Below are positions 11,552-40,154 of a stretch of DNA of 64,000 nucleotides, piece by piece. This stretch comes from Candidatus Melainabacteria bacterium (lineage in GTDB: Bacteria > Cyanobacteriota > Vampirovibrionia > Obscuribacterales > Obscuribacteraceae): positions 18,779-82,778 of the forward strand of contig JABDBL010000006.1 of NCBI GenBank assembly GCA_013288645.1, in the 5' to 3' direction. Position 1 is the first letter of the stretch. Every line of letters begins with the position of its first letter. The notes below the pieces were generated by a model, which did no database searches, had not been told where the DNA came from, and saw nothing but the letters and a program-made list of their open reading frames with translations. The translations under genes and the position numbers were made by a program.

Positions 11552-11728
11552 AAATGGAATTGCTAGCTTTTCCATGCGCTGTTTTAATTCGGACGAATTT
11601 GTCCTGACACAGAGCAAAGCCGCAAGGAAGATGTCATAAGGCATTTGTCGTTTACAAATTTCATTCAAAATGAAAACACTAAGACCTTTATAATAGCTGT
11701 AATCTGAAGCATTCTAATAGGTAAACTA

Positions 11729-12757: not shown

Positions 12758-12794
12758 GCTACTTGGAGGATGCATGTTCAAAGGAAATTAGGGT

Positions 12795-14500: not shown

Positions 14501-14537
14501 GATATTATAGCAACCTTATCAATTGACCGGAATACCT

Positions 14538-15095: not shown

Positions 15096-15185
15096 TGCCC
15101 AGTATTCACGAAACGGCTTATCCAAGGCTAAAAGCAGCGATCTCGAATAACGATCTTGAAGATCTGTTTACTCCGATTCCAACCA
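15095..15185 (+). pseudogene. tnpA: 5' stub of a Tn3-family transposase gene (about 27-30 codons)
   Basis: The ATG overlaps the tnpR stop (TGATG). MPSIHETAYPRLKAAISNNDLEDLFTPIPTT resembles DUF4158-type TnpA N-termini. The frame is then lost. Confidence 0.5.
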
Positions 15186-15683: not shown

Positions 15684-15692
15684 TGAGGGCTT

Positions 15693-15767
15693 GAGCCGGA
15701 TGAAGCGAAAGCTTCATGTCCGGTTCTTAGAGGAGGTAGACGCGGCGACGCGTCTACTTTACTCAAC
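15693..15767 (+). ncRNA. group II intron domain V (15693-15726) and domain VI with a bulged-A candidate; 3' splice site at about 15767
   Basis: GAGCCGGATGAAGCGAAAGCTTCATGTCCGGTTC is a 34-nt DV hairpin with the AGC triad and a GAAA loop. It is followed by stem GTAGACGCG-GCGA-CGCGTCTAC and an unpaired A 7 nt from ...CTCAAC. Confidence 0.8.
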
Positions 15768-15796: not shown

Positions 15797-16099
15797 TTGC
15801 TGTGTAAAATAGTTACAGCTACTTTCCAGGGGAACGCTATTTTGAATATTAATTGTTCTAGTTCTCATGATGTGGAACAAAAACAGAGAAGACTGCTTAA
15901 AGCCAATCGTTGTATCAATGGCAAAATGATTTCAGCGCTGGAGACACTTTCTATTAAAAGAGGTAGAGTACCCGCTTCTACTTTTGATCCTTTTACTGAT
16001 TATAAAAAGGTAAATGATGAATTTGAATTGGTTATGGGTGAGTCAAGTAGTCATGCAATGGAAGATTTACTTGATGTACCATCGGATAAAAAGCGATGA
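15797..16099 (+). CDS. hypothetical small protein (doubtful)
   Basis: ORF overlapping the next gene by ATGA. No domain recognised. Start uncertain. Confidence 0.3.
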   Translation: MLCKIVTATFQGNAILNINCSSSHDVEQKQRRLLKANRCINGKMISALETLSIKRGRVPASTFDPFTDYKKVNDEFELVMGESSSHAMEDLLDVPSDKKR

Positions 16100-18432
16100 T
16101 AGATACGACGGATCCAGCCGGACATCAAACCGCTGATCAAAGTGCAAATTTAAATTCACTCGAATTACTGCCCCTTCTTGGTGTGCTCATATTTGTAATA
16201 CTCATTTATTCACCTATTATGATGAATGCATTTAATGGTGATGATTTTGTTCATCTGAAGTGGCTTTCCGAAGCAGTTAAACAGCCGGAACTTATTTGGC
16301 GTAACTTTCACAGTGCATGGCTAGATATAAGTACAGCAAAGTTTTATAGACCGCTTATTTCCTTATTTATGCTTGGGGATTATATCATTTGGCACGGTAA
16401 CGGTACGGGCTTTCATTTGACAAATGTTTTATGCCACATAGCAAATACTTATTTTTTATGGCTTATATTGCGGCAATTGCCTTTAAACAACGATAGTTCT
16501 AAATGGAATTATATGTGGTGCTTAAGTGCAGCTACGCTATTTGGACTCCACCCACTACATCCTGAGGCGGTCTCTTGGATTACTGGAAGAGTTGATACCT
16601 TCGTCACTTTATTTTCGCTTGCAAGTCTTTACAGCTACATAGAATGGCGTCGATCAAAGAGTGGCATGGCCCAGAGTTCTAATCAGTGGTTTTTCCTAAG
16701 CTTGATTTCTATGGCTTTGGCTCTTATGTGCAAAGAGATGGCTATTGTTTTACCGGCAATATTTTCTGCCTATGAATTTACTATAGGATCAAAGGAATTA
16801 AAAATTAGAAAAAGACTTTTGTCTGTTTTCGAAAGAACATTTCTATTCTGGTCACTTTTAGGACTCTATTTTATCTTGCGTTATTTTGCTTTAGGTACAC
16901 TAATTGGTGGTTACGACAATGCACTCTTGAGTCTTGATAATTTGCCAGAATTAATTTCAATTTGGCGTAAGTCTCTATATCTTCTTTTCTTTCCTTTTGA
17001 TGGTGCCCTCCTAAGCAGATCTGGACTTATCACATTTATTTGGGGTGGGCTTTTAACTGCTAATTTTATATTGATCGCTAAGCACGTTTTTATTGAAAAC
17101 AAAAATATGTCCACTTTCGTTTTTCTGTTAAGCTGGTTGGTACTGAGCTTAGTACCAGTATATAAACTCTTTAATATTGCCACTGATTTGCAGGGTAGTC
17201 GTTTAGCATATTTGTCCACAGTTCCTTTATCTGCCTTGCTCTGTTTCGGTTATGCTACTTGTTTAGAAATCAACGGTAAGATACGGTACTGGAAGCTTTT
17301 GGCTCTCGCTCTTTTATTATCGTCAGCGGGAGCACTCTTATTGGTAAATAATTCGGCTTGGATTGAAGCAGAGCTTACTTCCCAAGCTATTGTGAATCAA
17401 TTGAATGATTTATCTAAAACAATCAATAAAAAAAATACGATATATATTGTTGGACTACCCGATCAAATAAACGGGGCCTATGTCTGTCGCAATGCTCTGG
17501 ATGGAATGAGCAAATATCCGCAAATCAGTAAAAGTATTGATTATTGTTTTAATCTTGACGAAATAAATCATGTTTTTCCATTCGGATATGCTCGGCATTC
17601 TATGACACATATTGATAAGGATAGAGTAACTTCCAAATTTTACATTTGGGATGCAATAGAAAAGAAATTGAAAAGCTTTTCTTTACCGGATAAAGCAAGC
17701 GATGGGTCACTCACTATAGACACAAACAAGGATATTTCACAGCAAGAAGGAGAAATAATAATTGATCTAAGAAATAAACCTTGTTTTTACCTAGATTGTT
17801 TAGTTGTAAGTGTTAATTTTGGGCAGGCTGGTGACAAAAAAAAGGGTGCTAATGTTTGCAGGCTCTTTTATACGAACGAAATTGTTTCACAATTCGATAA
17901 TGCGCATAGACTTGATGTACATTTGGAGCCCGGTTCTGGTAATCAGAAGCTTCTGTTTCCTTTGCATGGACAAGCAGATTGGGCTATGGGAAATAGAGCA
18001 CACCTTTTGAAATTGGTTTTGCCAAAGTCAAGAGCATTTTACATCCAAGATATTAGCTTTGAGCCAATAGAAAAAATTATGCCGAATCTCTACTTTAGAG
18101 CAAACGCTAATCAAAACAACCTGGGTTTCATAGAGTTGAACGACCTTTATCCGTCCTGCCAGCTGGGCTTTGATGGTGGTAAAGTTGTTGGCGCAGATAA
18201 AGTTATGTTCGAACTTACAGCGCCTGACCAGACTTTTACTGTTGTCAATGATACTAAAGAACCGAATTCAATTTTTTCTAGTAAAAAATTGAAAGGTCAG
18301 ACTGGTTTGATATCATTAAATAAGAAAGACTTCGCTTTACCCGGTATATATGAACTACGTTTGAGAGCATTGGACAGCAGTGATAAACAAATAGGCGTAG
18401 CCGGAGATCACATTGTAATAACGGTAAAATAA
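16096..18432 (+). CDS. polytopic GT-C-type (PMT/TMTC/ArnT-like) membrane glycosyltransferase, paralog of 6060..8414
   Basis: FNGDDFVHLKWL (DD motif), YRPL, HPLHPEAVSWITGRVD and KEMAIVLPA. Same ~350-aa C-terminal domain, ending ...GDHIVITVK versus ...SDHFILHVSN. Confidence 0.7.
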   Translation: MIDTTDPAGHQTADQSANLNSLELLPLLGVLIFVILIYSPIMMNAFNGDDFVHLKWLSEAVKQPELIWRNFHSAWLDISTAKFYRPLISLFMLGDYIIWHGNGTGFHLTNVLCHIANTYFLWLILRQLPLNNDSSKWNYMWCLSAATLFGLHPLHPEAVSWITGRVDTFVTLFSLASLYSYIEWRRSKSGMAQSSNQWFFLSLISMALALMCKEMAIVLPAIFSAYEFTIGSKELKIRKRLLSVFERTFLFWSLLGLYFILRYFALGTLIGGYDNALLSLDNLPELISIWRKSLYLLFFPFDGALLSRSGLITFIWGGLLTANFILIAKHVFIENKNMSTFVFLLSWLVLSLVPVYKLFNIATDLQGSRLAYLSTVPLSALLCFGYATCLEINGKIRYWKLLALALLLSSAGALLLVNNSAWIEAELTSQAIVNQLNDLSKTINKKNTIYIVGLPDQINGAYVCRNALDGMSKYPQISKSIDYCFNLDEINHVFPFGYARHSMTHIDKDRVTSKFYIWDAIEKKLKSFSLPDKASDGSLTIDTNKDISQQEGEIIIDLRNKPCFYLDCLVVSVNFGQAGDKKKGANVCRLFYTNEIVSQFDNAHRLDVHLEPGSGNQKLLFPLHGQADWAMGNRAHLLKLVLPKSRAFYIQDISFEPIEKIMPNLYFRANANQNNLGFIELNDLYPSCQLGFDGGKVVGADKVMFELTAPDQTFTVVNDTKEPNSIFSSKKLKGQTGLISLNKKDFALPGIYELRLRALDSSDKQIGVAGDHIVITVK

Positions 18433-18603: not shown

Positions 18604-21600
18604 TTATTTACCCCAAGATTTGGGTACTGGTCTGTTTAGTTCAGGATTCATTGATGTGATTGGTTTTCTTGGCGTTTGATTAGGGTCTAACCCAGGTATT
18701 TGATTGTAGTTGTTGGCACTTAGGTTGGAATTAGCGCTATCTGAAGTACTTGGCTGTTTATTTGATGACATGTTCTGCACAATGTTTTGAATGTTTGATG
18801 TGCCTGGAGCAAAAGGAAATGGAGGCGGTGCAGCTTCTGCTTGTTGTTTTACTGGAACGCGTTCTTTATTGGCCAAAACAGCAGATGTTTCCAGTTCTAT
18901 TTTTTGATTTTGGTCTAAGACAATTCGGTTGCCGGCTGTTTCAATGGTTGGTGCTGGTTGTCCTAAGAAAGTCCCGCAATTAGTGCAGAATTTTTTGGTT
19001 GTGGCGGGTTGTTTACAAGCGGGGCAAATACGATGGCCTAAATTGTCTTCAATCTTTTTGGGCACAACGACTGAGGCAGTAGTTGATCCATCTGGAATCA
19101 CGCCAGCAATAGGCTCAATTGCGCTAATGGTTGGATTACCAATTGTATTAACAGCCGCATCTGGTATGGCACTAGCTAACGTGTCAGCAAGTTTGCCAAC
19201 TGCAGTTGTGGATGGACTAGAAGCGCCTGTAGCCAAAGTTTCTGGCGCATTTTGCTCAGGTACTTGGCGCCAACCACCTTGTTGACCTAAGTGTGATTGC
19301 CATGGAACATGAGTGGGTAGAGGTGACGCCATCCCGTCTCCGTCAGCGGAAGGTGGCCCTGAGCGACTGGAAACGTTGTGCAATAAGTGCAAGCGAGCAA
19401 TCTCTTCAATACCCCTCAAGTCAACCATAAGTGGTTTAACTTCGCCAAATTCTGGATCTCCGGCTGGTGAGAGATAAACAAGAGCGTGTTGTTTTTCCAT
19501 ACGCTTAATAGCATCAGAATCAACTCGAGCTACAACTTGTTGCGAGTGAATGCGGTTCCAACTGGTTGGAAATACACCGCCACCTCCGGCTTGGAAGTGG
19601 TCAGATAAGCCTGGAACAATTACTGCTTGTTTACCAATTTCATCGGAGAAGAAGCGAGCTGTGGTTTCATCAGCGTTGTGTAAGCAAACCCGGACAGCAG
19701 AGTTAGAGAATATTGTACGTAATTCAGAAGAGCCGGAGCTGGCGGGGTTGGTAGATGTAGTGTTCGTAGCTATCTGACTGATGTTTTGTAAAATAACAGT
19801 CAAACCACCATTAGCACCACGAACAATTGCTGATAATCTGCCTGCTGTGTCTAAGTTCAATGTTTGATATTCATCAAAGAAAGCAAATAAAGGCAAGACT
19901 GATACAGTACCATATCTGGTATGTAAGGCTTGTTGTAATTGATATACGAAGCAAGAAGCTAATGACTCAGCATCTGGTCCTAATGCTGCCGGAGCACCAA
20001 ATATTAGAACGGTAGGTTTGTGCATTGCAGCATTTAGGTCAACATTTGATTGTTCGGTAACACGTAATACACCTGGATTCTTGAACATGCGCAGGCGACC
20101 ACGCACACCTTGTATATTTTTGTCCCAATCGGTATCTGTACGAATAATAGAAGATAATGTTTGAGTTAATTCACTCAGTTCTGCTGGATCAACTTCTGGA
20201 TTGTTTTTAAGCCGACGCAGTGACTCAACAATATTACGACGGTTATTAACCAGCTTCATTAATCCGCGTGGATTACAAGGCAGAGCTGAAATTTCAGAAA
20301 CATAACCATCTGTATCTTCACCCATTACTTGCACAGCGCCCCATTTAAGCAATTGAGTTAAGCCAGCAATATAGCCATGGTCACGTTCTGCCCAGTGTTG
20401 TTCTTCAGGAGCTAGCATATTTATATCTTGCACGATGGAAGAAGCAAATATTGTAGGAGATAGATCCATTGGATTCCAGTTGACTGATTCTTCCATATCT
20501 AGAGGGTTAAAATAGAGTGTATCAAATCCAGCTGACTTAGCCTCAGGCAACACAGTATATTTAAAACCTTCTCGCTTTTCATCTAAGGCTGGATCGTTGG
20601 CTTTGGCTTCTAAAGCGATGATTACGCAAGGCTTAGCTAGCAATGCTTTTATAATAGCGCGCATCAAAGTGGTTTTACCTGAACCTGATGGAGCTACGAT
20701 GAACATGTTTTTATTGGGTAATCGTCCTAATGGAATCGTTACTGGCAAATGAGTACGGGCAAGAAACCCGAAAGGAAGTACAACACCATCAGCCTCAGTC
20801 CAGCTAGCATTCGGATTGCGCTTACCTAAGCGTCCATGACGTCTTAAGTTAGGAGGACAAAGATATGATTTTTCATAATCTCTAGGCGTCATAAGCCCAG
20901 AAGGAGGATTAAAGGTACGAATAGTCTGCCATGGGAATAGACGCTTCTTGTGAGCCGCAGCAACACTGAGCGCAATTAATATGAGCGTTGGCAATAAGAT
21001 GGCGATGGATGTTGTATCCAAGAAGCCGTGCGGTTTGTATTGAGAAAGAGGTGCTTTGTCTGGGTGACCGGACACGCCTTCAAGTCTTAAGTTTTTGCTT
21101 TGTATAGCTTGACTGGCTGTTGGTGTTAAGCTAGATTCTGCACGTGATACTGGCTGTGGTGAATCGCTGACCGGTGGGGCAGCGTTTGTCGCTAAAGGTG
21201 TTTCAGCAAGTGGCAACTGCTCATTAGGCGAAAGAATATGGGCTCCTGGTTGGATAAGAGGATTGTCATTTGTAGGCGGTAAAGCAGTAGTTATGCCTGC
21301 CGGTAATCGAGTATGAACCCCATCATCTGGTGCAACATTATACTGTTGTGGAGAAGCATTGCGGTAATTATCTGGTGGCACTAAAACAGTATGTCCGCCT
21401 CTTGTTTGATAAGCATACATTCCACTGGGTTGGCCACTTGCTTGCGGTTGTGAAATAGAAGGTAAGCCAGTATATCCACCAGAAGAAATGGCAGGTTGAT
21501 TGGAATAGTTTGGCGTATAGCCACCTTGAAGAGTTTGCATACGGCGCTCATATTCTTGGGCGCTAATTACTTCCCCGGTATCCGAGTTGCTAAAGCGGGC

Positions 21601-21639
21601 GATTACACCCTTTTCGTTCAGTTGTGGTCTCCAGCCCAT
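18604..21639 (-). CDS. type IV coupling protein (VirD4/TraG/TraD-like ATPase) with long disordered extensions and a C-terminal zinc ribbon
   Basis: TM segment (SIAILLPTLILIALSVAAA). Walker A FIVAPSGSGKTT, Walker B LFAFFDEYQ, TVILQNISQ. CPACKQPATTKKFCTNCG near 18965-19035. AAGGAG SD before the start. Confidence 0.85.
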   Translation of the reverse strand: MGWRPQLNEKGVIARFSNSDTGEVISAQEYERRMQTLQGGYTPNYSNQPAISSGGYTGLPSISQPQASGQPSGMYAYQTRGGHTVLVPPDNYRNASPQQYNVAPDDGVHTRLPAGITTALPPTNDNPLIQPGAHILSPNEQLPLAETPLATNAAPPVSDSPQPVSRAESSLTPTASQAIQSKNLRLEGVSGHPDKAPLSQYKPHGFLDTTSIAILLPTLILIALSVAAAHKKRLFPWQTIRTFNPPSGLMTPRDYEKSYLCPPNLRRHGRLGKRNPNASWTEADGVVLPFGFLARTHLPVTIPLGRLPNKNMFIVAPSGSGKTTLMRAIIKALLAKPCVIIALEAKANDPALDEKREGFKYTVLPEAKSAGFDTLYFNPLDMEESVNWNPMDLSPTIFASSIVQDINMLAPEEQHWAERDHGYIAGLTQLLKWGAVQVMGEDTDGYVSEISALPCNPRGLMKLVNNRRNIVESLRRLKNNPEVDPAELSELTQTLSSIIRTDTDWDKNIQGVRGRLRMFKNPGVLRVTEQSNVDLNAAMHKPTVLIFGAPAALGPDAESLASCFVYQLQQALHTRYGTVSVLPLFAFFDEYQTLNLDTAGRLSAIVRGANGGLTVILQNISQIATNTTSTNPASSGSSELRTIFSNSAVRVCLHNADETTARFFSDEIGKQAVIVPGLSDHFQAGGGGVFPTSWNRIHSQQVVARVDSDAIKRMEKQHALVYLSPAGDPEFGEVKPLMVDLRGIEEIARLHLLHNVSSRSGPPSADGDGMASPLPTHVPWQSHLGQQGGWRQVPEQNAPETLATGASSPSTTAVGKLADTLASAIPDAAVNTIGNPTISAIEPIAGVIPDGSTTASVVVPKKIEDNLGHRICPACKQPATTKKFCTNCGTFLGQPAPTIETAGNRIVLDQNQKIELETSAVLANKERVPVKQQAEAAPPPFPFAPGTSNIQNIVQNMSSNKQPSTSDSANSNLSANNYNQIPGLDPNQTPRKPITSMNPELNRPVPKSWGK

Positions 21640-21650
21640 ATCCTATCTCC

Positions 21651-22286
21651 TTAGCTTTTGCCACCTTCGCTAATGCCGGCAATGCGCAACCCATCGGTTG
21701 TGTTCTTAACTAAATATTCTAATTTGACTGAGCGGGTTTTAGGTCCTTTGTTAGGTATATTTAGTACTTGCTTGCCTTCTACTGTAATAATTACTGAACC
21801 GTCTGATTGATTATTGCCAGCTGCTACACGATTGGCACTAAATGAGCTTTTAATACCGGAGGCATTTATTTGTTGAGCTATTTCTGGTGTCCAAACATTT
21901 TGTCTGTAAGCTTTTGCACATTCAGGGGTCATGTATTCTATAGCCTTTTCTTGGCTTTCGCTGGCTGTGTCTGCACTTAAATCCCAAGCTAGCGGCAACC
22001 AATCTTGGACCAGATTTAAAGAATTTAGAGGATCAGCAAACGATGCCTGGTTAGCTTGAGCCTGACCATTTGCTGTAGCATAGGTAGATGTTCGAGCAGA
22101 TGAAATTGGTCTGCCTCCACTTATATCCGGATCGTCCATATAAGCAGCTCTTGGTCGAGTTTTAGCAGCGGGCTCCGACCCACCACTAGACAATAGAATA
22201 GTGAAAAATGCTCCAGCCATCAGGCCGGCTAATGCCACCATAATTAAGGTTATTTTGTATTTTTCACCTGCTTGATAATCGAACAT
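21651..22286 (-). CDS. bitopic membrane protein in the VirB8/PrgL/TcpC position (function inferred from context only)
   Basis: One N-terminal TM (ITLIMVALAGLMAGAFFTILL) plus a ~150-aa extracytoplasmic domain. Lies between the VirB4 and VirD4 genes. Confidence 0.4.
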   Translation of the reverse strand: MFDYQAGEKYKITLIMVALAGLMAGAFFTILLSSGGSEPAAKTRPRAAYMDDPDISGGRPISSARTSTYATANGQAQANQASFADPLNSLNLVQDWLPLAWDLSADTASESQEKAIEYMTPECAKAYRQNVWTPEIAQQINASGIKSSFSANRVAAGNNQSDGSVIITVEGKQVLNIPNKGPKTRSVKLEYLVKNTTDGLRIAGISEGGKS

Positions 22287-22295
22287 ATACCTATC

Positions 22296-25148
22296 TCAAC
22301 CTTGTAAATATTGGGGACTAAATGTTTCTGGAGTGATGCCTCGGGCTAGCAAATGACAAGCCAATCTATGATCCCCACTACATAAGCTTATAAGTTTTGC
22401 CCGCATAGGCTGGTCTATGTTTGGTTCGGTAGTGGCAACCCAGTACATAAAGCGTGGTACCACAACTTTGACTACACCACGAGAGAGTTTATGATAGACG
22501 AGGAAGGCGTCGCTATACTCACGATTTTTTCTAGTTAAATGAGCGATGGCCTGCATTTCTTGTGGAGTTAAACCGCATGCCTCTCTGATCAACTCAAAGT
22601 TGCTTGGATCATTACCAAGAATAATTTTAATTGCACTGTTAGTGGCTAAATTGCGTGCCCTTTCATCACGAAGTAAATCGCTTAACTCTTGCGAAATGCC
22701 TATAAAAAGCAAACCTAAGTGGCGGCTTGTACGTGAAGCATCTTCAACCAAAGTCTTGCCACCTTCGTATCTAAGTAATCGCCACAACTCATCTATACAG
22801 AAAACAAAGCGAGCGGGCAGTCCTTTGGCCATTTGCTCAGCTTTATGTTGGGCTGCTCTTCTTAAGACGAAATCAGACACAAATAATGTCACTACGGCTT
22901 CTAGAGTTTTATCGTGAGAAAGATCTGATGTGTCGAATACCATTAATTGAGCATCCATTGGAATAGTGGTTGGTCCATCAAACAGTTTACCGAAAATAGC
23001 TCCACGACAATATAAACTTAAACGATTAGCTAAGTCTTCACAAGTTTCTGCTCGTTTTGTATTTGTTGTTTGACCAGCTTCTTTAAATAGCCAATTAACA
23101 AGATCAGATTCTATAGGTACACGATTTTCTTTAGCGGCTTGTTTGTATATTTGTTGGATACCTTGCATTAAGACTGGTTTTTCATCTTTGGTTAAAGATT
23201 GTTGACCGTGTTCACCTAACATCACTGAGTGAAAATTCAAGATTTTAATAATGTGTGATTCTGGTGGATTATTTGGGTCAAGCGGTTTTTCGCCAGGGGC
23301 TGGGACTGGCATATCATAAAGATTTATGCAAACTGAACCGTCAGGACCTAATTTGATATAGGCTGCATCATCGTAAACATCAGTTAGTATTTTGTAACTA
23401 CCAGAGCGGTCAATAATAACTGTTTTTGCTCCAGCTAAGGTTTTCATTTGGATGATTTGTTGAGCTACCATAGATTTACCTTCACCAGGTTGCCCGAAAA
23501 TAATGCAAAGAGCATTGGGCAATTTTTCATCATATGGATTTAAGAATACTGGTTCCAATGTTTCTTTGGAAAAACCTAGCCAATCACCAGATTCTGAGCC
23601 CAATTTGGCATGAACATAAGGGAATGAATTACGTATGGTTGGTGTGCGGACTATTTTTCCACGTCGTGATACATCGATGCCTAAGCCAGGTAAACTACCC
23701 GCCAACAATGATTTTTGTTCATGATAGCCAACCACAAAACGTGCACCACGGCATTGAGGAGCAGCAGTGCGTACAAGTTCAGAAGAGCGATTTAGATCAT
23801 CGAGCGTTTCAGCAAGTAAGGTAAGGTAAATTGCAAAATTGAAAACTTCAATGTTGGTTGTATAAAGTTCAGAACCTATTTGAGCTGCTTCTTGAGCCTT
23901 TTCTGCTTCTTCTTGGTTAGGAGAGGAACGTTCACCCATAATACCTTGATAAGTATTGGCGTGCGATTGAGCTTGTTTACGTTGTAATTGTTTGCGGAAT
24001 ATATCTTTATCTAGTTTATGGGCATAGATATTCATACGCCATTCACAATTTAGCCGTAAAAGTGGCATTAGCCAAAGTGGACCAGTGCGTTCTGGCAAGC
24101 GGTTCATATATAAGGTGCGCACATAGCGCCCTTTGCCATTTTCATTCTTATGAGCGTGTTGCTTAATGGTGTTCAATCGTTCACTTTCAGTGTCGGTGAA
24201 ATCAGATATTTTTATATAGTCTGCATGACTGAAGTCATAGCAAGATTCGGTAAGCTGTTCTCTAATTGTGGCTGGCTCCATGTCTGGAAACACACGGCGT
24301 AAGTTAGCTGGTATTGAGGCTTGCGTTGGTCTTACTGGTTGAGGCAAATTATTTTGGTCGTTTGCTTGGTTTGGATTCAGTTCACGATAGAGCATTTGAA
24401 AATATTCGCTGGCAGAAATTGGGCGACCACTCATACCACAATTACCAATTTGGCCAATGTAACCAACAGCACGTTGAATGAGGGTGTTAATGTTTTTGCT
24501 GTGACTGCTGACCGTTTGTCTTACAGCTTGATTGCTAAAAACGTCTACTATATGGTTAATTTGATTTTTGATCCAACTTTCATGCGCTGGTTTTTCTTTA
24601 GGTGGACGGTAGCAAAATGTTATAAAGAACTTGAGCTCCGGAACAAAATTGCGAGATAAAAGAAATTCTTGATCGTTTTCTACGCACTTAGCTACGTATT
24701 TGAGAAAATCATCGTTAACGGTATCAACTGGGTGACGAGCAAAATATTCTTCTTTACTTATGTTGTGGCAAACTACTGTTAATTGCACCGATGTATCAAT
24801 ACTGTTTATAAGACCGGTGAAGTGATTCATCAAAGTAATTAGGCGCACTTCATCAAAACCACTAACATGTATACCGTCTAGTTCATAGCAACAACGATAA
24901 CTACCGTCCTTGAGAATAGCTATACCCAATCCTGAAACATCGTCTTGAAATAGGTCCCATAAAGGAATAATGCCAGCTGCTGAAGGGTGCGAACGCGGTA
25001 CTGCGTTTGTGGGGAGCTTAGAAATGGCATCTTTTATTTCAGGGTCAATGGCAGCACGCTTTGCTTTCAATATATTTAGAAAGTCAGGTGTTTTAAGGCT
25101 GATAGAGGAAATCATTTTTTTACTCACTGAAATGGGGAAGTTCTTCAT
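22296..25148 (-). CDS. VirB4/TrbE/PrgJ-family T4SS ATPase
   Basis: Walker A FGQPGEGKS (about 23473-23500), Walker B RFVFCIDELW, GISQELSDL. 950 aa. Preceded by a VirB3-like gene. Confidence 0.9.
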   Translation of the reverse strand: MKNFPISVSKKMISSISLKTPDFLNILKAKRAAIDPEIKDAISKLPTNAVPRSHPSAAGIIPLWDLFQDDVSGLGIAILKDGSYRCCYELDGIHVSGFDEVRLITLMNHFTGLINSIDTSVQLTVVCHNISKEEYFARHPVDTVNDDFLKYVAKCVENDQEFLLSRNFVPELKFFITFCYRPPKEKPAHESWIKNQINHIVDVFSNQAVRQTVSSHSKNINTLIQRAVGYIGQIGNCGMSGRPISASEYFQMLYRELNPNQANDQNNLPQPVRPTQASIPANLRRVFPDMEPATIREQLTESCYDFSHADYIKISDFTDTESERLNTIKQHAHKNENGKGRYVRTLYMNRLPERTGPLWLMPLLRLNCEWRMNIYAHKLDKDIFRKQLQRKQAQSHANTYQGIMGERSSPNQEEAEKAQEAAQIGSELYTTNIEVFNFAIYLTLLAETLDDLNRSSELVRTAAPQCRGARFVVGYHEQKSLLAGSLPGLGIDVSRRGKIVRTPTIRNSFPYVHAKLGSESGDWLGFSKETLEPVFLNPYDEKLPNALCIIFGQPGEGKSMVAQQIIQMKTLAGAKTVIIDRSGSYKILTDVYDDAAYIKLGPDGSVCINLYDMPVPAPGEKPLDPNNPPESHIIKILNFHSVMLGEHGQQSLTKDEKPVLMQGIQQIYKQAAKENRVPIESDLVNWLFKEAGQTTNTKRAETCEDLANRLSLYCRGAIFGKLFDGPTTIPMDAQLMVFDTSDLSHDKTLEAVVTLFVSDFVLRRAAQHKAEQMAKGLPARFVFCIDELWRLLRYEGGKTLVEDASRTSRHLGLLFIGISQELSDLLRDERARNLATNSAIKIILGNDPSNFELIREACGLTPQEMQAIAHLTRKNREYSDAFLVYHKLSRGVVKVVVPRFMYWVATTEPNIDQPMRAKLISLCSGDHRLACHLLARGITPETFSPQYLQG

Positions 25149-25458
25149 CGATTAGAAAACGTCTGGGATTTGGATCTGGACCAGGGATATATACTTGAGA
25201 GGTTAAATTAAAATTGATAATGGCCTCCCAATTTGCCACTGAACCATGCATTGTGGCAAAGGCGTAGATAGGACCGATAAGACCTAAAATGAGTGAAATG
25301 TCAAAGCGCAAATCTTGCCCAGCAAAATTAATTGGATTGCACCAGGAGTAGAATTGAGAGGAGATAATTAAGCTAGCTAATATGCTAATCAGCTGATCAT
25401 AGCGTAAGCCAAATAACTTTGGGCAATCTTCTAAATTTAGTGGTGTGATATCTTCCAT
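25120..25458 (-). CDS. PrgI/VirB3-like small membrane protein
   Basis: 112 aa. KLFGLRYDQLISILASLII resembles the (K)LFGLTxRQL N-terminal motif of PrgI/VirB3-like proteins. Two hydrophobic segments. Directly upstream of and overlapping VirB4. Confidence 0.55.
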   Translation of the reverse strand: MEDITPLNLEDCPKLFGLRYDQLISILASLIISSQFYSWCNPINFAGQDLRFDISLILGLIGPIYAFATMHGSVANWEAIINFNLTSQVYIPGPDPNPRRFLIDEELPHFSE

Positions 25459-25481: not shown

Positions 25482-26306
25482 TTATACGGTTGCTTTCAGG
25501 GGTCTTTTAGGCGGTAAAAGGTTTGACCTATTTGTTATGCTGTCAAAAGGATTGTTATTAGCGACGCTGAAGTCAGACTGAATTTTTTCAGTCAATTGAG
25601 TTACCTCTTGCTTTTCTTTTTCTTCATTAGATAATTCATTAATCAGTTTTGGGAAGAATATTTGCTGTACTTGTTTATTTGTCAATAAAACAGGATCACT
25701 ATTCTTTTTACTAGCTAAATTCTTCTGATTGTCAATCAATTCTTGGGGTAAATTCGCACTATTGTTGACCAAAGCGAATGCTGTAATTGCTTGTTCAAAC
25801 CGCCCGCTTAATCGTAATAATTCTGCTAATACATATTGATAACGGGAACGATTGTTTTGCCAAATGCTGTCATTTATTGCAATGGCAAGTTCTTGGATAG
25901 CTAAAGTTAGCCATTTACTGGTGTCTTGATTACTTTCTTTAGCGCACCAATATCCATTTAATGCTAGAAGGGCGCGATCAAGAAGATGAAAATTATTTTT
26001 ACGCCCTGTCAGTATGGCATGAGCAAATTTCTTAGGATGATCAACATCAGGCGTTATAGCTATGCCTACTGGCAAAAAATAATGCCGGTTAAATGTATTT
26101 GTCCACCAGCTATGTTGACATTGAGGACAAATAGTGACGAGGCAAGAACGCACAGCGCCATAAGGTAATACACGATGAAGGTCTGCTTCGACAGGTAAAG
26201 TAGCTGTCATTTCAGACATTTTAAAAGGTATTTGCGTAGCAAAAACCTCATTGCATGAGGGACAACTGACTGAAATTGCTTGAATAATAAATTCGAAAGG
26301 GGACAT
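25482..26306 (-). CDS. zinc-ribbon plus TPR-like helical protein (DUF2225-like architecture)
   Basis: CPSCNEVF ... ICPQCQHSWW gives two CxxC pairs around an EADLHRV segment, followed by a helical repeat region (ELLRLSGRFEQAITAFALV). GAAGG SD. Confidence 0.5.
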   Translation of the reverse strand: MSPFEFIIQAISVSCPSCNEVFATQIPFKMSEMTATLPVEADLHRVLPYGAVRSCLVTICPQCQHSWWTNTFNRHYFLPVGIAITPDVDHPKKFAHAILTGRKNNFHLLDRALLALNGYWCAKESNQDTSKWLTLAIQELAIAINDSIWQNNRSRYQYVLAELLRLSGRFEQAITAFALVNNSANLPQELIDNQKNLASKKNSDPVLLTNKQVQQIFFPKLINELSNEEKEKQEVTQLTEKIQSDFSVANNNPFDSITNRSNLLPPKRPLKATV

Positions 26307-34627: not shown

Positions 34628-35059
34628 TTATAGACCGCCGCCCAAGCCTCCGAAGTTGTTGATAGCGAATGTGCCCATTAAGTGGACTGCGGTTGGTGCG
34701 CCGAAGCCGACGCCCAATCCTTTAGCCACGTTCATGGCAGCTTCACCACCGTCCCGTTGACCGAAGGCAATTTTCATGCCGGCCATTGAAGAAGGAACCG
34801 TTGACATAGCGGTTACAACACGTGAGATGTCTCTTGCGCTGTCGTAGCCGTAGTCTGCCATCTGACCTACTTCATTGGATTGTCCGTAACGGGGGTCTAC
34901 TGGGGCGCCGACTAACCCTTGAGCATGCGCAGCTTGGTCATAAACTCCAATGGCGAGTAGAACCAGCTGCGGTGCCAAGAGGAAACCAACGCGTGCCGCG
35001 ACTTTGAATGTTCGCGAAGACACAACTTTCTTGATTGTGGATTTAATGCTGGTTGCCAT
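34628..35059 (-). CDS. small secreted Gly/Ala-rich protein (candidate abundant structural subunit)
   Basis: Strong AGGAGG SD 5 nt upstream. Long leader ending AAHAQG. Gly-rich hydrophobic C-terminus GLGVGFGAPTAVHLMGTFAINNFGGLGGGL. Has its own terminator. Visibly higher GC than its surroundings. Confidence 0.6.
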   Translation of the reverse strand: MATSIKSTIKKVVSSRTFKVAARVGFLLAPQLVLLAIGVYDQAAHAQGLVGAPVDPRYGQSNEVGQMADYGYDSARDISRVVTAMSTVPSSMAGMKIAFGQRDGGEAAMNVAKGLGVGFGAPTAVHLMGTFAINNFGGLGGGL

Positions 35060-35101
35060 TTTGACCTCCTATTGTCTGTAACTGAGTATTGAATTATCGA
35101 C

Positions 35102-35734
35102 CTATTTATGTTGTAACAATTTGCCGGATACAGCCGTGTTCACAGTCATGCCATTGCCATAAGCAGAAGGCGTGGTTGGACCGGCTTGATAACCGAAATT
35201 CTTTCCGTAGCTGGCTGCTGGGCCAAGAGCAAGAGCTTGACCAGAATTACCAGCAATGTGTTTCCTAAGTAGCTTGCCTGCGACTTTCTTATTTATCAAC
35301 TTGGCAGAGACTGCTTTGTTAACAGATAAGGCTTTGTCAGCGGCTTTGGGTAGATTAAGGGCGGTGGCAGGTAAAGCGGCCATTACTGGCGCATTAGCTG
35401 GAGCACCAAAACTTTCTTTGTAGTGTGTGGGTGTGGCTTGCGTTAATGTAGCTTGAGTTTGTGTTTGGACATGAGGGGCAACTGGTAGTGAACCAGGATC
35501 TATACCTAAAATGCTTTTGCTGCTTGGTACATGACCGTTGGTTACAGAATGGCTAATCGGATGAGAGGAAACTTCTGGTACAGCTGCTTGTTCCAAACGA
35601 TAATAGTTAGGAGCAAAGTTAAATCTGGCTCCGCCTCTTTGTTGAGCGGATGCTGGTTGCAGGCTTATGCCTATTGCTACGCTTACAGAGGCTATTGATA
35701 ATAATATTGATTTTGTATTTTTATTCTTATTCAT
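35102..35734 (-). CDS. secreted low-complexity (Ala/Pro/Gln/Lys-rich) protein
   Basis: Signal peptide (LLSIASVSVAIGISLQPASAQQ). AAGGTGG SD. No domain recognised. Confidence 0.6.
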   Translation of the reverse strand: MNKNKNTKSILLSIASVSVAIGISLQPASAQQRGGARFNFAPNYYRLEQAAVPEVSSHPISHSVTNGHVPSSKSILGIDPGSLPVAPHVQTQTQATLTQATPTHYKESFGAPANAPVMAALPATALNLPKAADKALSVNKAVSAKLINKKVAGKLLRKHIAGNSGQALALGPAASYGKNFGYQAGPTTPSAYGNGMTVNTAVSGKLLQHK

Positions 35735-35755
35735 GGTTTCAACACCACCTTATCC

Positions 35756-36496
35756 TTAGAACTTTAAACCATTGTTTGCACTGTAATTCGTCAAGGTTAA
35801 ACCAAGTAAACCAGCGTTATATACATTGCCGATGCCGCCGCTGCTTAATGCCATTCCGGTACTACCTAAAGTTGAGACCATACTGTAAGCGTGCGATATG
35901 CCACCGGAAGTGCGCTGTTGAGATGTACTTGGAGTATTTGTAGCGCCACTTAAAGTTTGTGTTTGTGGAGGAGCAGCATCATTTTGATAATTATTTGCTG
36001 TTGGATTCATTCTATTATCTAAATCTTGAGGCATCGTTTGACCCAAATTTTGTATTTGTCCAGCAGGGAAATTTTGGCTGGATATACTTTGATTGGCTAA
36101 ATTATTCATTGGATTAGTGGCTTCGTTATAAGAAGATCCATTAAATTGAGGAAAGATCTTGTTATTAGCCCAAGAGTCATATATAGCTTGGCGAGCTTCT
36201 TGCGGAGTTTGAAAGTTTTGTTGCTGAGTTATTTGGGATATAGTTCCAGGCACATTGCTTCCGGTACCCACTGGCAAAATATTTGCTATCGACTTTACAG
36301 AGGTTAAAGCAGGGCCATAATTGACTGATTGATTAATGGGAACTACTTCGGGAGGTAAATAAGAATCTTGGTTATAGCCTTGAGCATAAACAGGTAAAGT
36401 AATTGCTGTATTGGCTAGAGCAATTGAAAGTGCGACCGAAAGCGCTATACGCTTAGCTGGCTTTTCCATTATTAGATTTAGTGTTTGACTTTTCAT
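35756..36496 (-). CDS. secreted Asn/Gln/Ser/Thr-rich protein ending in ...NNGLKF
   Basis: Signal peptide (ALSVALSIALANTAITLPVYAQG). C-terminal alternating hydrophobic pattern with a terminal Phe. Confidence 0.6.
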   Translation of the reverse strand: MKSQTLNLIMEKPAKRIALSVALSIALANTAITLPVYAQGYNQDSYLPPEVVPINQSVNYGPALTSVKSIANILPVGTGSNVPGTISQITQQQNFQTPQEARQAIYDSWANNKIFPQFNGSSYNEATNPMNNLANQSISSQNFPAGQIQNLGQTMPQDLDNRMNPTANNYQNDAAPPQTQTLSGATNTPSTSQQRTSGGISHAYSMVSTLGSTGMALSSGGIGNVYNAGLLGLTLTNYSANNGLKF

Positions 36497-36580
36497 TTTA
36501 GTTTGCTCAGGCGAAAGGAATTTTTATCGATCTTATTTGACTAAGGTAAATATTAGAAGAATTTACCAGGAGAATGAAGA

Positions 36581-36614
36581 GGGGGAATTCCCACTTGCGT
36601 GGGAAGATCCCCCC
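36581..36614. promoter_or_regulatory. double GGGAATTCCC-type palindrome (GGGGGAATTCCCAC-TTGC-GTGGGAAGATCCCCCC); also a GC-rich hairpin with a GCAA loop on the minus strand
   Basis: Read directly. Lies 8 nt downstream of the 36622 stop and 85-118 nt upstream of the 36496 start. On the minus strand TTCATT-N17-TAATAT follows. Confidence 0.45.
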
Positions 36615-36621
36615 TAGGATC

Positions 36622-37668
36622 CTAGAAGTTGGTTTCCACGGCTTGTTGCGGTAAAAGGCGCCCAGGTTCATTAGGATGAGCATTTAAGCCTGTTTGCGGA
36701 CGCAACGGGAAACCAAAGTCCGTTGTGCGGTTAGGTGGCGTGCCAACACTTGTAAATGCAGTGCGTGCGCCTTGACCAAAGTCTGTAGTTAAATAAGAGC
36801 TTGTAAGTGGATTACCATTACCAACTCCATTGGGACCATACATAACGTTGTAACCGTTCAGGTCTTGTACTGATTTACCGGTGGAAATAACTGCAGTACC
36901 GAGCTTGTTTCGCATACCACCACCCAAATCTATTGATTTATTAAAATTATCATTATTAGATCCAGCTGGTCCTTTATTGTATCCGGTACCGGTAGGTATA
37001 CCGTAAACCTGACCGAGACCGGCTAATGGTCCAAATTGGGTGACTTCATCTTGAGAATTACCGCCACCACCTAAAAACGCTGTACGAGAGCGTAATTCAT
37101 ATTGAGTACTTTTGTTGGTACCTAGTCGACGAATTTGAGGGATGGTCGTGTAATAACCACCGGTTCCAGGTAAACCTCCGACTGGCTGAACACTGGTTGG
37201 TACGGCAGGATTACCAAAACCTTGCAGTATGGGGCGAGCAGGTCCGGGAGTAGAAGGTCCTTTTGGGATAAGCGGAAAAAGCGCTTGCCCCCATCCCCCC
37301 GGTAATCCTGAAGGCGCCAAAGACATCGGTAACATCGTGGGTAAACCTACTCCGCTAAAAGAGCTGCCGATCTGAGTGGCAGGTATGGCTGGAATAGAAG
37401 GAATCAATGTAGGTGGGCCTGTCATCCCAATTGGTGGCGGTAGTGAGGTTGGTCCGCTACCTGGAGCGGGAACGTTACCAAGACGTGAAGGTACCCCTGG
37501 CAATGAAGTTGAAGTGCCAGGAACGTAGGGGTCGCGCGGAGCGAGAGTTCCTTGTCCGTATGCTTTTGGTGCAAGCATTATGCTAAAAGCCATGAGGACA
37601 GTAATCAATGCAGTTGCTTTGCCTTTACTGCCTTTAAGTTCTATTAGTTGTTTATCCATCATATACAT
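36622..37668 (-). CDS. secreted Gly/Pro-rich protein, paralog of 37700..38710, ending in ...ETNF
   Basis: Signal peptide (ALITVLMAFSIMLAPKAYGQG). TAGGAGG SD. Shared motifs RDPxV, LPGVPS, GSG, PPTLIP and TTDFG. Confidence 0.65.
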   Translation of the reverse strand: MYMMDKQLIELKGSKGKATALITVLMAFSIMLAPKAYGQGTLAPRDPYVPGTSTSLPGVPSRLGNVPAPGSGPTSLPPPIGMTGPPTLIPSIPAIPATQIGSSFSGVGLPTMLPMSLAPSGLPGGWGQALFPLIPKGPSTPGPARPILQGFGNPAVPTSVQPVGGLPGTGGYYTTIPQIRRLGTNKSTQYELRSRTAFLGGGGNSQDEVTQFGPLAGLGQVYGIPTGTGYNKGPAGSNNDNFNKSIDLGGGMRNKLGTAVISTGKSVQDLNGYNVMYGPNGVGNGNPLTSSYLTTDFGQGARTAFTSVGTPPNRTTDFGFPLRPQTGLNAHPNEPGRLLPQQAVETNF

Positions 37669-37699
37669 TTGGCTAGGCCTCCTAAGTGCCTGAATGAAA

Positions 37700-38710
37700 T
37701 TATTGAGTAGCTAGAGTGGTGAGTGGTGATGGTGGTGGTCCTTGTGAGACAGCACCGCTACTGCTTGTGGTCATTTTGTTTGGGTTTATCATGGGAATGC
37801 CATAAAGGTCGTTTGTAACTTGAGCATTGGCAAAATTCCTTGTGTGATTGCCAGAGGCTGTTTGCTGAGGTACGCCTGCTTGTCCTTGTCCTGGGTATTG
37901 AGCAGGCATTGGTGAATCAAAAGAAATCTGAGCTTTTTTAACGGCTGCTTGTTTGAAATTACCAAAATCTGTTGTAGTGGATCCGGCTTGCGGTACCCAA
38001 GCAGTGCCTTGAAGGCGATAAGCATTAGCTGTACGCGGCAAGCCAAAATCATTACTGCCTTGACGGGTTGGGCGTGTAGTGGGAGCGGAACCAGTAATTT
38101 GTCCGTTTGAATTCACAGCACCAATGGCTGCTGCGCTGTTCTGACTTTGACCGGCACTTGCTCCTGAAGAGCCATTATAAAAACTAGGTGGTCTGAGCAT
38201 GCCAGGGTTAGCTCCCGGTGTAGAAGGTTCAGGAGGAATAGATCCGCCCACGACGGCATTCATTACTCCCGGTGGCATAGCGATAGCGTTACTGACTGGC
38301 AAAGAGATTACATTACTAGGTACATTTATTTGATTAGCTGGCACCACAACTTGATTGGTAGGTAAGCTAAATTGATTACCTGCTATGCCGTTTGCCCAAG
38401 GGATTAAAGTAGGGGGGGCAAGAAGCATGCCTGGGTTAGGAGGTAGAGGTACAAGTCCTGATCCAAGTGGAGGTATTGCACCTTGAGCAGAGGGAACGCC
38501 AGGCAAGCTAAAATTAGCACCATTAACTAAAGGGTCTCTTAAAGCGGTTGTACCTGCACCACCATAAATAGAATTGCCTGAAGAAATGGCAGGAGTAGAA
38601 CCTGATTGGGCATGTATTGGCAGGCTTAAAGCAAAAATGCCAATCAAGGATAAAGCCAATGCTATTGGCACTGGTGTCTTTGAATTGCTGTTTTTACTTA
38701 CATTGAACAT
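37700..38710 (-). CDS. secreted Gly/Pro/Asn-rich protein, paralog of 36622..37668
   Basis: Signal peptide (IALALSLIGIFALSLPIHAQSG). Shared motifs LRDPLV, SLPGVPS, LGSG, PPTLIP and NDFG/TTDFG. Confidence 0.65.
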   Translation of the reverse strand: MFNVSKNSNSKTPVPIALALSLIGIFALSLPIHAQSGSTPAISSGNSIYGGAGTTALRDPLVNGANFSLPGVPSAQGAIPPLGSGLVPLPPNPGMLLAPPTLIPWANGIAGNQFSLPTNQVVVPANQINVPSNVISLPVSNAIAMPPGVMNAVVGGSIPPEPSTPGANPGMLRPPSFYNGSSGASAGQSQNSAAAIGAVNSNGQITGSAPTTRPTRQGSNDFGLPRTANAYRLQGTAWVPQAGSTTTDFGNFKQAAVKKAQISFDSPMPAQYPGQGQAGVPQQTASGNHTRNFANAQVTNDLYGIPMINPNKMTTSSSGAVSQGPPPSPLTTLATQ

Positions 38711-38815: not shown

Positions 38816-38826
38816 GGTATTTCCCA
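38816..38826. promoter_or_regulatory. half-match to the GGGAATTTCCCA motif (GGTATTTCCCA) next to GGGGG-N13-CCCCC
   Basis: About 105-115 nt upstream of the 38710 start. The 3' half ATTTCCCA is identical to site 28970. Weaker than the other sites. Confidence 0.3.
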
Positions 38827-38872
38827 TTATTTTATTAAATCGACAGAAAAATAGAGAGTTGATTCAATTTAT

Positions 38873-39506: not shown

Positions 39507-40154
39507 GTGAGCACGCAACAGACGAAACTAATTGACCAAGCAAATACTCAACAGGAATTGCATGAGCAATCTGTAGATATACAAGGTCTCGATGACATAT
39601 TTAAGTGGGCATCGGATGTAGTGGCGGTAGGTAACGAAGATAGTCGGGCGAGGCTGGCAAGAGAAAAACGGGTTCGCACACAAGTATTGACTTTTGTGCA
39701 AAAGGCTAAAGAAGATAAAGTATTAGCCGATGCTAATCACGAAATCAATTATTTGCAGAGAAGAGTCATCGCTCTACTTACTAAATTGCAAGAGATAGTT
39801 GATGAAAATTCTTTACTAAAACAGATTATGTTGACTCAACTTTATTCAATTCAGCAAATGCCAGCGATGGAAGCTGAAATAAGAGAACTCAAATCTATTC
39901 AGTGCGAAAAAGATTCTGCCGTTAATGAAAGACGTTATTTAATGGATGGTCTGACCAAGCTCAAAGTAGAGCGCGATTATTTAGAAGACGTTCTGACGGC
40001 TGCCGAAACTGAAAATTATCGTCTGGCGAAAGTGCTTAGAGGCACGCGTAACGAATTAATCAAGAGCCAAGCGAAAAAGTGGTGGCATAATCTTTATAGT
40101 TTGGTAGAAAAATTTGAAAGCGTTGCCTTACCTATAATCAGAAAAAAACCATAG
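39507..40154 (+). CDS. coiled-coil hypothetical protein
   Basis: GGGGGAGG SD before a GTG start. Heptad-like, charged sequence throughout (e.g. LKVERDYLEDVLTAAETENYRLAKVL). Confidence 0.55.
   Translation: MSTQQTKLIDQANTQQELHEQSVDIQGLDDIFKWASDVVAVGNEDSRARLAREKRVRTQVLTFVQKAKEDKVLADANHEINYLQRRVIALLTKLQEIVDENSLLKQIMLTQLYSIQQMPAMEAEIRELKSIQCEKDSAVNERRYLMDGLTKLKVERDYLEDVLTAAETENYRLAKVLRGTRNELIKSQAKKWWHNLYSLVEKFESVALPIIRKKP

Follow-up and report, generated by a model that had tools for sequence, protein, structure and literature searches.

Five exported protein families linked to a divergent type IV secretion-like gene cluster in the Obscuribacterales

The DNA analysed here, called the window in what follows, is a stretch of 64,000 nucleotides from the genome of a Candidatus Melainabacteria bacterium of the order Obscuribacterales (assembly GCA_013288645.1, contig JABDBL010000006.1, positions 18,779 to 82,778 of the forward strand), and all coordinates refer to it. 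Between 34628 and 38710 it carries a block of five open reading frames (ORFs) on the minus strand, named A to E in the order of transcription, with A first and E last, and further downstream on the same strand lies a cluster of genes of the type IV secretion system (T4SS) type. This work deals with the block and with its possible relation to that cluster. Gene A (37700-38710) encodes an exported protein of 336 amino acids, rich in Pro, Gly, Ala and Ser, which is a paralog of the product of gene B (36622-37668; 348 amino acids, exported, Gly/Pro/Thr-rich, with islands of conserved motifs and a -TNF C-terminus). Gene C (35756-36496) encodes an exported, Asn/Ser/Gln-rich protein of 246 amino acids whose C-terminus resembles that of outer-membrane proteins, and gene D (35102-35734) an exported, Ala-rich and basic protein of 210 amino acids. 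Finally, gene E (34628-35059) encodes a precursor of 143 amino acids, made up of a 46-residue leader (AHA/QG, where the slash marks the predicted cleavage site) and a near-invariant mature part of 97 residues.

A to E are real genes and not chance ORFs, since their families recur by tblastn in 52 to 82 of 82 loci in a fixed order. Judging by their sequences and by the conservation among orthologs, all five proteins carry predicted Sec-type signal peptides. Their N-termini start with basic residues, followed by a hydrophobic segment of at least 19 residues located inside residues 7-38, and the predicted cleavage sites (A, IHA/QS; B, AYG/QG; C, VYA/QG; D, ASA/QQ; E, AHA/QG) consist of a small residue and then Gln, which is the first residue of each predicted mature protein. 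This AxA/Q site is kept across the ortholog alignments. As to composition, Gly, Pro, Asn, Gln, Ser and Thr together make up a fraction of 0.59, 0.59, 0.60, 0.44 and 0.42 of the mature proteins from A to E, and none of them contains a single Cys residue. Searches of A to E against Pfam, NCBIfam and PHROGs gave zero matches, among them none of A to D with the VirB7, VirB9 or VirB10/TrbI families, and in Pfam and NCBIfam none of A to E with outer-membrane-protein families. The profiles of B and E did not find anything significant among the PDB sequences.

A and B are related to each other by BLASTP (E = 2e-11 over 116 residues) and far more clearly by their family profiles (hhalign probability 100%, E = 2e-51, about 190 columns), and they have the motifs TLRxPLIxGA, PSTPG and TTDFG/DFG in common. 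The same profile comparison showed that C, D and E are unrelated to one another and to A and B. In the family alignments, islands of strictly conserved residues are separated by variable linkers. The motifs of B (alignment A1) are LRDPLIPG, LPGTGGYYTTI, LGGGGxSQDEVT, IDLGGGxR, STEFGQG, TTDFGFP and AVETNF; those of A are TLRxPLIxGA, PPPPSTPG, QRWGGQTTxDFG and SQDGPR; those of C are QDSxLPPEVVPLDP, QTQTL and AGFGAGA...RNGFRF; and those of D, which has a basic C-terminus, are GARFxFAPN, LGxDP and IASYG. The last residues are also characteristic. Of 83 B orthologs, 81 end in -TNF, and C mostly ends in -FRF or -SRF, the protein of the window ending ...NNGLKF and its family ...GFRF. Most A orthologs end in -IAPY, and the A protein of the window is longer and atypical, ending in -TLATQ. 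Hence, an aromatic C-terminal residue, which belongs to the beta-signal of outer-membrane beta-barrels as a necessary and not a sufficient feature, is found in the A, B and C families and is compatible with outer-membrane targeting. Read from composition and termini only, A to D would be largely unstructured proteins with docking motifs that associate with the outer membrane.

These results agree with most of what the first-pass annotation of the block had proposed from the letters alone. The five minus-strand ORFs lie where it had placed them, and the signal peptides with their cleavage-like sites, the low complexity, the absence of recognisable domains, the paralogy of 36622..37668 and 37700..38710 with TTDFG/DFG among the common motifs, and the terminal Phe of two of the proteins (B and C), which turned out to be a conserved feature, were all borne out.

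Gene E stands apart in its conservation. Its identity across the order is 79-93%, compared with about 75% for the VirB4 ATPase of the neighbouring cluster, about 68% for MgsA, about 60% for UvrC and about 40% for B, and the mean column identity of the mature part (from Gln47) is 91% in alignment A3. E is preceded by a strong Shine-Dalgarno sequence (AGGAGG), and each locus carries one to four copies in tandem; 22 of 77 loci have at least two. Run on a diverse alignment, AlphaFold2 produced a model with a mean pLDDT of 78.3 and a pTM of 0.64, in which a leader helix (16-49) and a conserved segment of low confidence (50-65) are followed by a helix (66-99), a loop (100-106), a second helix (107-136) and a Gly-rich tail. 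With a shallow alignment of near-identical sequences the pLDDT was 50.7 and the model uninformative. No pilin family was matched by E in Pfam, NCBIfam or the PDB sequences. Considering its conservation, tandem copies, long leader and hairpin model, it is proposed that E could behave as a major structural subunit.

An exhaustive HMMER search with E recovered 143 representative relatives, which define a domain composed of GLVGAPVDPRYGQSNEVGxLADYGYDTARD, a helix, a loop, a second helix and a terminal HLIGTFxINNFGGLGGGL. This domain occurs in three forms: small proteins with a signal peptide, proteins of about 200-216 amino acids, and the extreme C-terminus of proteins of about 950-1060 amino acids that have an N-terminal region with several transmembrane (TM) segments and a VIT domain. 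The VIT region of these fusion proteins presents a weak resemblance, below the cut-offs, to the XrtN-target, MSEP-CTERM and TIGR02921 (PEP-CTERM) models. Examples of the fusion are the representative proteins P0225, P0229, P0236, P0238 and P0269 and positions 10001-13045 of locus L083; tandem small E-domain paralogs were seen in L085 and L087. In most relatives, a basic (Lys/Arg) loop joins two clearly hydrophobic helices. The divergent E-domain loci (L083-L087) are short contigs or have no T4SS genes linked.

The distribution of the block was determined by a species scan with one genome per GTDB species and a 12-sequence alignment as the query, which gave 77 loci; the window proteins were then compared by tblastn with 82 loci, 77 of them species-representative, and co-occurrence was measured inside the 10 kb flanks of the species-representative loci. 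Apart from a few evidently mislabelled bins, the 77 species loci all come from metagenome-assembled genomes of the Obscuribacterales type. The B homologs form 96 clusters, all of them from Obscuribacterales or Melainabacteria-type sources or without a name, and the E family and the VirB4 type were likewise recovered only from Obscuribacterales-type sources, although word-indexed protein searches are blind to very distant relatives of A to D. By tblastn, B is present in all 82 loci, A in 80, E in 77, D in 74 and C in 52, and the gene order A-B-C-D-E never changes; 62 A-family ORFs were recovered from these loci, with A directly upstream of B.

The usual arrangement, on one strand, is A-B-C-D-E (with one to four E copies) followed by a VirB6-like gene, an ORF called o274, a VirB3-like gene, virB4, a VirB8-like gene and virD4. 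In other Obscuribacterales, UvrC, MgsA and the divergent gene cc215 lie ahead of A, and the block and the T4SS genes are contiguous; full uninterrupted clusters from A through VirD4 are found in L066, L090 and L091. The VirB6-like gene follows the block on the same strand in 55 of 55 species loci with at least 7 kb past B, and its tblastn match begins a median of 765 nt after the last E. In the window, E and the VirB6-like gene are separated by a lineage-specific insertion of about 6 kb (29020-34446). It contains, according to Pfam, a membrane protein, a Nuc_deoxyrib_tr-like (nucleoside deoxyribosyltransferase-like) protein, tRNA_edit, a HAD hydrolase, a 176-amino-acid ORF and a protein combining Asp-protease and tetratricopeptide repeat (TPR) domains. 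Most loci lack the inserted genes at this place, and L006 and L007 have part of them in common with the window. The Asp-protease and TPR gene beside E, which encodes a membrane-anchored, double Asp-protease, was considered as a member of the system and discarded, as this neighbour is not conserved.

Concerning the T4SS-type core, the identity of two genes is clear from their family matches. The VirB4-family ATPase (22296-25148, minus strand, 950 amino acids) is very divergent. It matches P-loop_TraG (3e-17) and AAA_10 in Pfam, and the VirB4_CagE, TraC and CD1110 models of NCBIfam with E values of 1e-40 to 1e-46, all below the curated cut-offs and with scores that are about equal (CD1110, 158 bits against a cut-off of 325; TraC-F, 154; VirB4_CagE, 139). 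In the PDB it matches VirB4 4AG5 (6.5e-12) and TrwK (2.8e-8). The VirD4-type coupling protein (18604-21639, minus strand, 1011 amino acids), located at the end of the cluster and conserved, matches T4SS-DNA_transf above the gathering score (9.5e-18) and TraG-D_C in Pfam, and CD1115 in NCBIfam at 9e-15, with 54 bits against a cut-off of 250; no PDB sequence was matched.

VirB4 has 127 relatives of the same type, all at least 67% identical and none of them named outside the Obscuribacterales lineage. Its identity is 67-86% inside the order and at most 25% against the VirB4 proteins of 72,556 PLSDB plasmids, where the best match is encoded on a Myxococcus plasmid whose neighbourhood is uninformative. 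In tblastn searches of the same plasmids E found nothing and the VirB6-like protein only a low-complexity match with 7% coverage. Since its identity to plasmid proteins is so low, its NCBIfam scores are nearly equal and below the cut-offs, and it has no similarity to the MPF_C systems discussed below, this VirB4 is treated as a probable unclassified, deep lineage.

The remaining core genes, also on the minus strand, are named after topology and position. The VirB6-like gene (26337-28868) encodes a protein with a signal peptide, 5-6 predicted TM helices (residues 156-383) and a long low-complexity tail; tandem PYIRPSNDPSGPS repeats occur in its C-terminal half, and in its orthologs, of about 1300-1900 amino acids, conservation is confined to the N-terminal ~400 residues. 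The product of o274 (25482-26306) is a putatively cytoplasmic, zinc-ribbon-like protein with Cys pairs and a weak DUF2225 match; it is a conserved member of the cluster, present in 26 loci plus L090 and L091. The VirB3-like ORF (25120-25458), of 112 amino acids with two hydrophobic segments, overlaps the start of VirB4 and was found directly upstream of it, with 52-90% identity, in 19 loci and also in L090 and L091; it lies below the 120-amino-acid ORF cut-off and is a candidate VirB3/PrgI-like component. The VirB8-like gene (21651-22286), conserved after VirB4 in L066, L090 and L091, encodes a predicted bitopic protein with an N-terminal TM helix and a periplasmic domain of about 170 residues. 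In Pfam and NCBIfam, the VirB6-like, VirB3-like and VirB8-like proteins had no significant family match, and none of the cluster proteins matched the VirB2, VirB7, VirB9 or VirB10 models. No VirB1-type hydrolase was seen in the cluster. A conserved relaxase was considered and rejected: Replic_Relax (PF13814) follows VirD4 only in L090 (16950-17786), and it was found neither in the window nor in the other loci examined.

Furthermore, a palindromic motif connects the block with the core. With at most one mismatch, GGGAATTCCC has five matches in the window versus 1.13 expected, and none of 100 shuffles reaches five; its extended, oriented form, on the minus strand in the window, is ATGGGAAWTNCC(CC). 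The spacer between B and C holds two inverted GGGAAT(T/C)CCC copies (36581-36614, minus strand) and a -10-like TAATAT at 36550-36555, and it includes an exact GGGAATTCCC before C-D-E (36583-36594) together with its inverted partner. Another copy (28972-28983, minus strand) lies upstream of the VirB6-like gene and is followed by gTGACA-N17-TAAACT, and two copies 20 bp apart (26367-26398, minus strand), followed by ATTTAC-N17-TAATCT, are located 60-90 nt upstream of o274. About 105 nt upstream of A there is a degenerate copy, ATGGGAAATACC (38816-38827, minus strand), which is kept only in the closest relatives, L006-L008 (3 of 55 loci). A further match, at 4238, is internal to a TPR-like ORF and was disregarded as a probable chance match.

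Across the order, 39 of 46 loci have the motif ahead of C, with a median distance of 95 nt to the start codon, and the additional E copies each have a motif of their own about 150 nt upstream. It precedes the VirB6-like gene in 41 loci as GGGAATTTCCccaaTGACAg-N17-cATAATAt (also given as GGGAATTTCCccaaTGACA-N17-ATAATA), and it is conserved upstream of o274 in the loci that reach this region. About 116 of the 185 motif matches in 1.39 Mb sit in these few spacers. The pair between B and C can also fold as a hairpin (-25.8 kcal/mol, z = -4.3), for which there is no Rfam family, and some clades have a different, unrelated hairpin after B. Nevertheless, single copies without an inverted partner adjoin -35-like hexamers, so the element is better read as a protein-binding promoter element than as an RNA structure, and it looks like the operator of a dedicated regulator.

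E is followed by a probable intrinsic terminator (34562-34603, minus strand), a stem-loop with a U-tract (-22.4 kcal/mol, z = -5.5). Four transcription units are thus likely: A-B, C-D-E, the VirB6-like gene, and the stretch from o274 to VirD4. All but A-B have one control element in common, which points to their co-regulation. The first-pass annotation had divided the block into two operons, each preceded by the motif; this holds for C-D-E, with its exact copy, and not for A, where the copy is degenerate and only 1 of 57 A genes has the motif within one mismatch.

Taking all of this together, the best explanation is that the Obscuribacterales have a type IV secretion-like machine that is chromosomal, vertically inherited and order-wide, and that A to E form its extracytoplasmic module, a reading to which we give a probability of about 0.55. 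It is suggested by the fact that the core encodes no detectable complex of the VirB7/VirB9/VirB10 type and no pilin, that all five proteins carry export signals, that their linkage to the core genes is unbroken across the order, that at least C-D-E have the promoter element of the core, and that A to D diverge about as much (26-44% identity, with C at about 26%) as the VirB6-like and VirB8-like proteins and o274 do (33-47%). The earlier suggestion, in which these proteins could be substrates or extracellular parts of the secretion system nearby, thus has strong support from the comparative context and the shared C-D-E motif; the homologs are found in one order, always linked to T4SS genes and conserved as ORFs.

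According to this model, the core would consist of the polytopic VirB6-like protein, the VirB3-like protein, the VirB4 ATPase, the bitopic VirB8-like protein and the VirD4 ATPase, and it would resemble a minimal monoderm type. A to E would supply the parts that such a core is missing for a diderm envelope, namely the periplasmic, outer-membrane and filament components. A to D could dock to one another as well as to the core and the outer membrane, in such a way that they span the periplasm and the outer membrane, act as surface adhesins, or both. A role as surface adhesins seems equally possible because the gene order and the best matches resemble monoderm systems such as pCF10. Mature E, a Gly-rich hairpin of 97 residues once the leader is removed, would be an abundant building block that oligomerises into a conduit or a pilus-like filament. 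Since E is weakly hydrophobic and extremely conserved, it may form a different oligomer, such as a helical channel or ring, and not a pilus of the VirB2 type. The C-D-E unit, the extra E copies, the VirB6-like gene and the unit from o274 through the VirB3-like, VirB4, VirB8-like and VirD4 genes would be switched on together through the ATGGGAAWTNCC palindrome. The data show that the genes are real and code for proteins with export signals, that they are linked to the T4SS genes throughout the order and have a cis-element in common with them, and that E is near-invariant, duplicated and modelled as a hairpin. The location and role of each protein, the polymerisation of E and the substrate of the machine are what we infer at this stage.

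Several observations weigh against this model. A to E have no detectable sequence similarity to known T4SS components in Pfam and NCBIfam or, for the profiles of B and E, in the PDB, and the labels of the VirB6-like, VirB3-like and VirB8-like genes come from topology and gene position. A Foldseek search of the E model against the PDB returned generic helical hairpins only, all with E > 1, and no T4SS pilin. The cluster E has helices whose hydrophobicity falls below that of 83-89% of its relatives, its loop has a net charge of -1, and E is unlike the classical VirB2 pilins, which are stored in the membrane and usually evolve rapidly. The E domain is also found away from T4SS contexts, for instance at the C-terminus of VIT-domain membrane proteins. 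Moreover, A and B lack the palindrome in most genomes, the block and the T4SS half are about 6 kb apart in the window, and the wider neighbourhood (UvrC and MgsA) is equally syntenic across the order, which makes adjacency alone weak evidence.

This last point leads to an alternative in which the block is an independent surface system (a fibre, functional amyloid, matrix or sheath) that lies beside the T4SS genes owing to general synteny. UvrC, MgsA and cc215 are indeed equally conserved neighbours, an insertion of 6 kb is tolerated between E and the VirB6-like gene in the window, a strong terminator follows E, the E domain is used in contexts without a T4SS, and the Gln/Asn/Gly-rich composition and aromatic C-termini recall curli-like, Fap-like and outer-membrane-protein-like systems. 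However, throughout the order one and the same palindrome stands ahead of C, of the additional E copies, of the VirB6-like gene and of o274, and the same-strand linkage holds in 55 of 55 loci with a short median gap. The block has no dedicated secretion or assembly gene of another kind and no matches to curli, Fap or other fibre families; in Pfam and NCBIfam no CsgA/B or FapB/C match was found, because A to E match no family there at all. Such a system is considered unlikely.

It is a little less probable that A to E are cargo, that is, Sec-exported proteins released from the periplasm to the surface or the medium as adhesive or matrix-forming proteins. The precedent is the ptx-ptl locus of Bordetella, where five genes for Sec-exported pertussis-toxin subunits lie directly upstream of T4SS genes, just as the five signal-peptide genes do here, and both the fast evolution and low complexity of A to D, as in many secreted adhesins, and the failure to find structural homology to T4SS parts would fit. 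However, A to E have no toxin domain or sequence similarity to the toxin, being low-complexity proteins or a helical hairpin. Ptl is not known to have a coupling protein, whereas the present cluster has VirD4, which implies that substrates are recruited from the cytoplasm. Besides, a near-invariant, multi-copy E is atypical for cargo, the divergence of A to D does not exceed that of the machine's membrane components, and if all five were cargo nothing would be left in the cluster for outer-membrane passage. The least probable of these alternatives makes E a membrane-anchor or sorting module, the block serving the sorting or anchoring of E-domain proteins, including the VIT proteins of about 1000 amino acids. 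The E domain occupies the extreme C-terminus of these multi-TM and VIT proteins, where XrtN-target, MSEP-CTERM and TIGR02921 PEP-CTERM proteins carry a sorting signal, and it resembles such a signal in having a conserved motif followed by a TM helix and a basic cluster; most relatives of E have truly hydrophobic helices and a Lys/Arg loop. The E domain differs from exosortase sorting signals in that it has about 97 residues, a second helix and an invariant INNFGGLGGGL tail, and E and E-like proteins matched none of the sorting-domain models of NCBIfam. No exosortase-like gene was seen in the loci examined, nor a rhombosortase-like or sortase-like gene in the cluster, and at the single VIT-fusion locus examined the T4SS and A to D genes are not linked. 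The stand-alone E of the cluster has lost the hydrophobic, positive-inside features, and its near-invariance and tandem amplification fit a building block better than a signal. On the whole, an extracytoplasmic module agrees better than any of the three alternatives with the shared promoter element, the constant linkage and an E that is invariant and amplified.

Regarding other genes of the window, cc215 (39507-40154, plus strand) encodes a coiled-coil protein of 215 amino acids with no significant Pfam match. It is transcribed divergently from A and is present in 67 of 82 loci, nearly always on the opposite strand and directly upstream of A, and it may be a component of the system. A mobile-element remnant lies about 3 kb past the VirD4 end of the cluster (14523-15767, plus strand) with a serine resolvase (14523-15095), a group II intron maturase fragment (15156-15683) and an Rfam match to the group II intron RF00029 (15691-15767). 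Two polytopic membrane proteins without a Pfam match are encoded on the plus strand at 6060-8414 (784 amino acids) and 16096-18432 (778 amino acids), one of them convergent with VirD4. Their N-terminal sequences are similar (...FNGDDFVHLKWL... and ...FFCSDDFYIISWL...), and they may be paralogous, glycosyltransferase-like proteins.

The outer-membrane complexes and pili of T4SS have been structurally characterised mainly in Proteobacteria and, to our knowledge, outer-membrane passage in other diderm phyla is largely uncharted. In these uncultured relatives of Cyanobacteria, which are non-photosynthetic, the locus provides a defined candidate set for this step: five protein families and one domain family, all of them new. 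The T4SS is chromosomal, order-wide and under strong purifying selection, as the identities of VirB4 (about 75%) and E (about 85-93%) indicate, a pattern that suggests a core physiological role and not an ordinary conjugative element. Cell-cell interaction, transfer of DNA or protein, and predation are among the possible roles. In addition, the conserved operator-like motif gives a direct handle on the regulon, and the E domain can be used as a search key for related systems.

Among known systems, a literature search did not find this cluster described and found only the T-type T4SS of Vampirovibrio, which was apparently acquired (PMC4451040), and the plasmid-borne MPF_C systems, T4SS with VirB4 and VirD4 such as alr7199-alr7213 of the Nostoc plasmid pCC7120alpha (PMC8600333). 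The MPF_C type shares the phylum-level lineage and the presence of VirB4 and VirD4 with the Obscuribacterales cluster. It differs in having an annotated TrbI/VirB10, and tblastn of the cluster proteins, VirB4 included, against the MPF_C region (L088) at E < 0.1 gave none but an unrelated TPR match.

Regarding pilins, VirB2 is made with a 47-residue leader and has an N-terminal Gln in the mature protein. E resembles the VirB2/TrbC/TraA pilins in its leader of 46 residues, its AxA/Q site, its small predicted two-helix hairpin and its Gly-rich tail, and in being encoded alongside VirB6-like, VirB3-like and VirB4 genes. Unlike them, it has no sequence or Foldseek match to that family, its helices are weakly hydrophobic and its loop is not basic, it has an extra conserved N-terminal segment of about 30 residues and a far higher conservation than usual pilins, and its domain is also fused to large VIT-domain proteins.

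A further comparison is with the minimal monoderm (MPF_FA-like) systems. The best NCBIfam matches of VirB4 and VirD4 are CD1110 and CD1115 of Clostridioides, the best PDB match of VirB4 is a Gram-positive VirB4 (4AG5), and, as in those systems, no VirB7, VirB9, VirB10 or VirB11 is found in the Obscuribacterales cluster. In the enterococcal plasmid pCF10, the genes of the surface proteins prgA/B/C are followed by prgH-I-J-L and pcfC, and the order VirB6-like, VirB3-like, VirB4, VirB8-like, VirD4, with genes of putative surface proteins upstream, recalls this Prg/Pcf arrangement. On the other hand, the host of the cluster is taken as diderm, and VirB4 and VirD4 score far below the CD1110 and CD1115 cut-offs that define the MPF_FA/CD1110-type class. 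In contrast to pCF10-type conjugation, the cluster is chromosomal, syntenic, conserved across the order and not on a mobile element, and the upstream proteins have neither an LPXTG motif nor known adhesin domains. It is possible, if doubtful, that the locus represents a new, vertically inherited class of T4SS-derived envelope machine, with a monoderm-type core, five exported proteins that adapt it to a diderm envelope, a filament or channel of E, large adhesin-like VIT proteins that plug in through the E domain as a targeting or co-assembly module, and a regulator specific for ATGGGAAWTNCC. The cluster is not categorically new, because its engine is recognisably VirB4/VirD4; it is a divergent T4SS core with new accessory families, including a helical-hairpin domain family and an operator-like motif.

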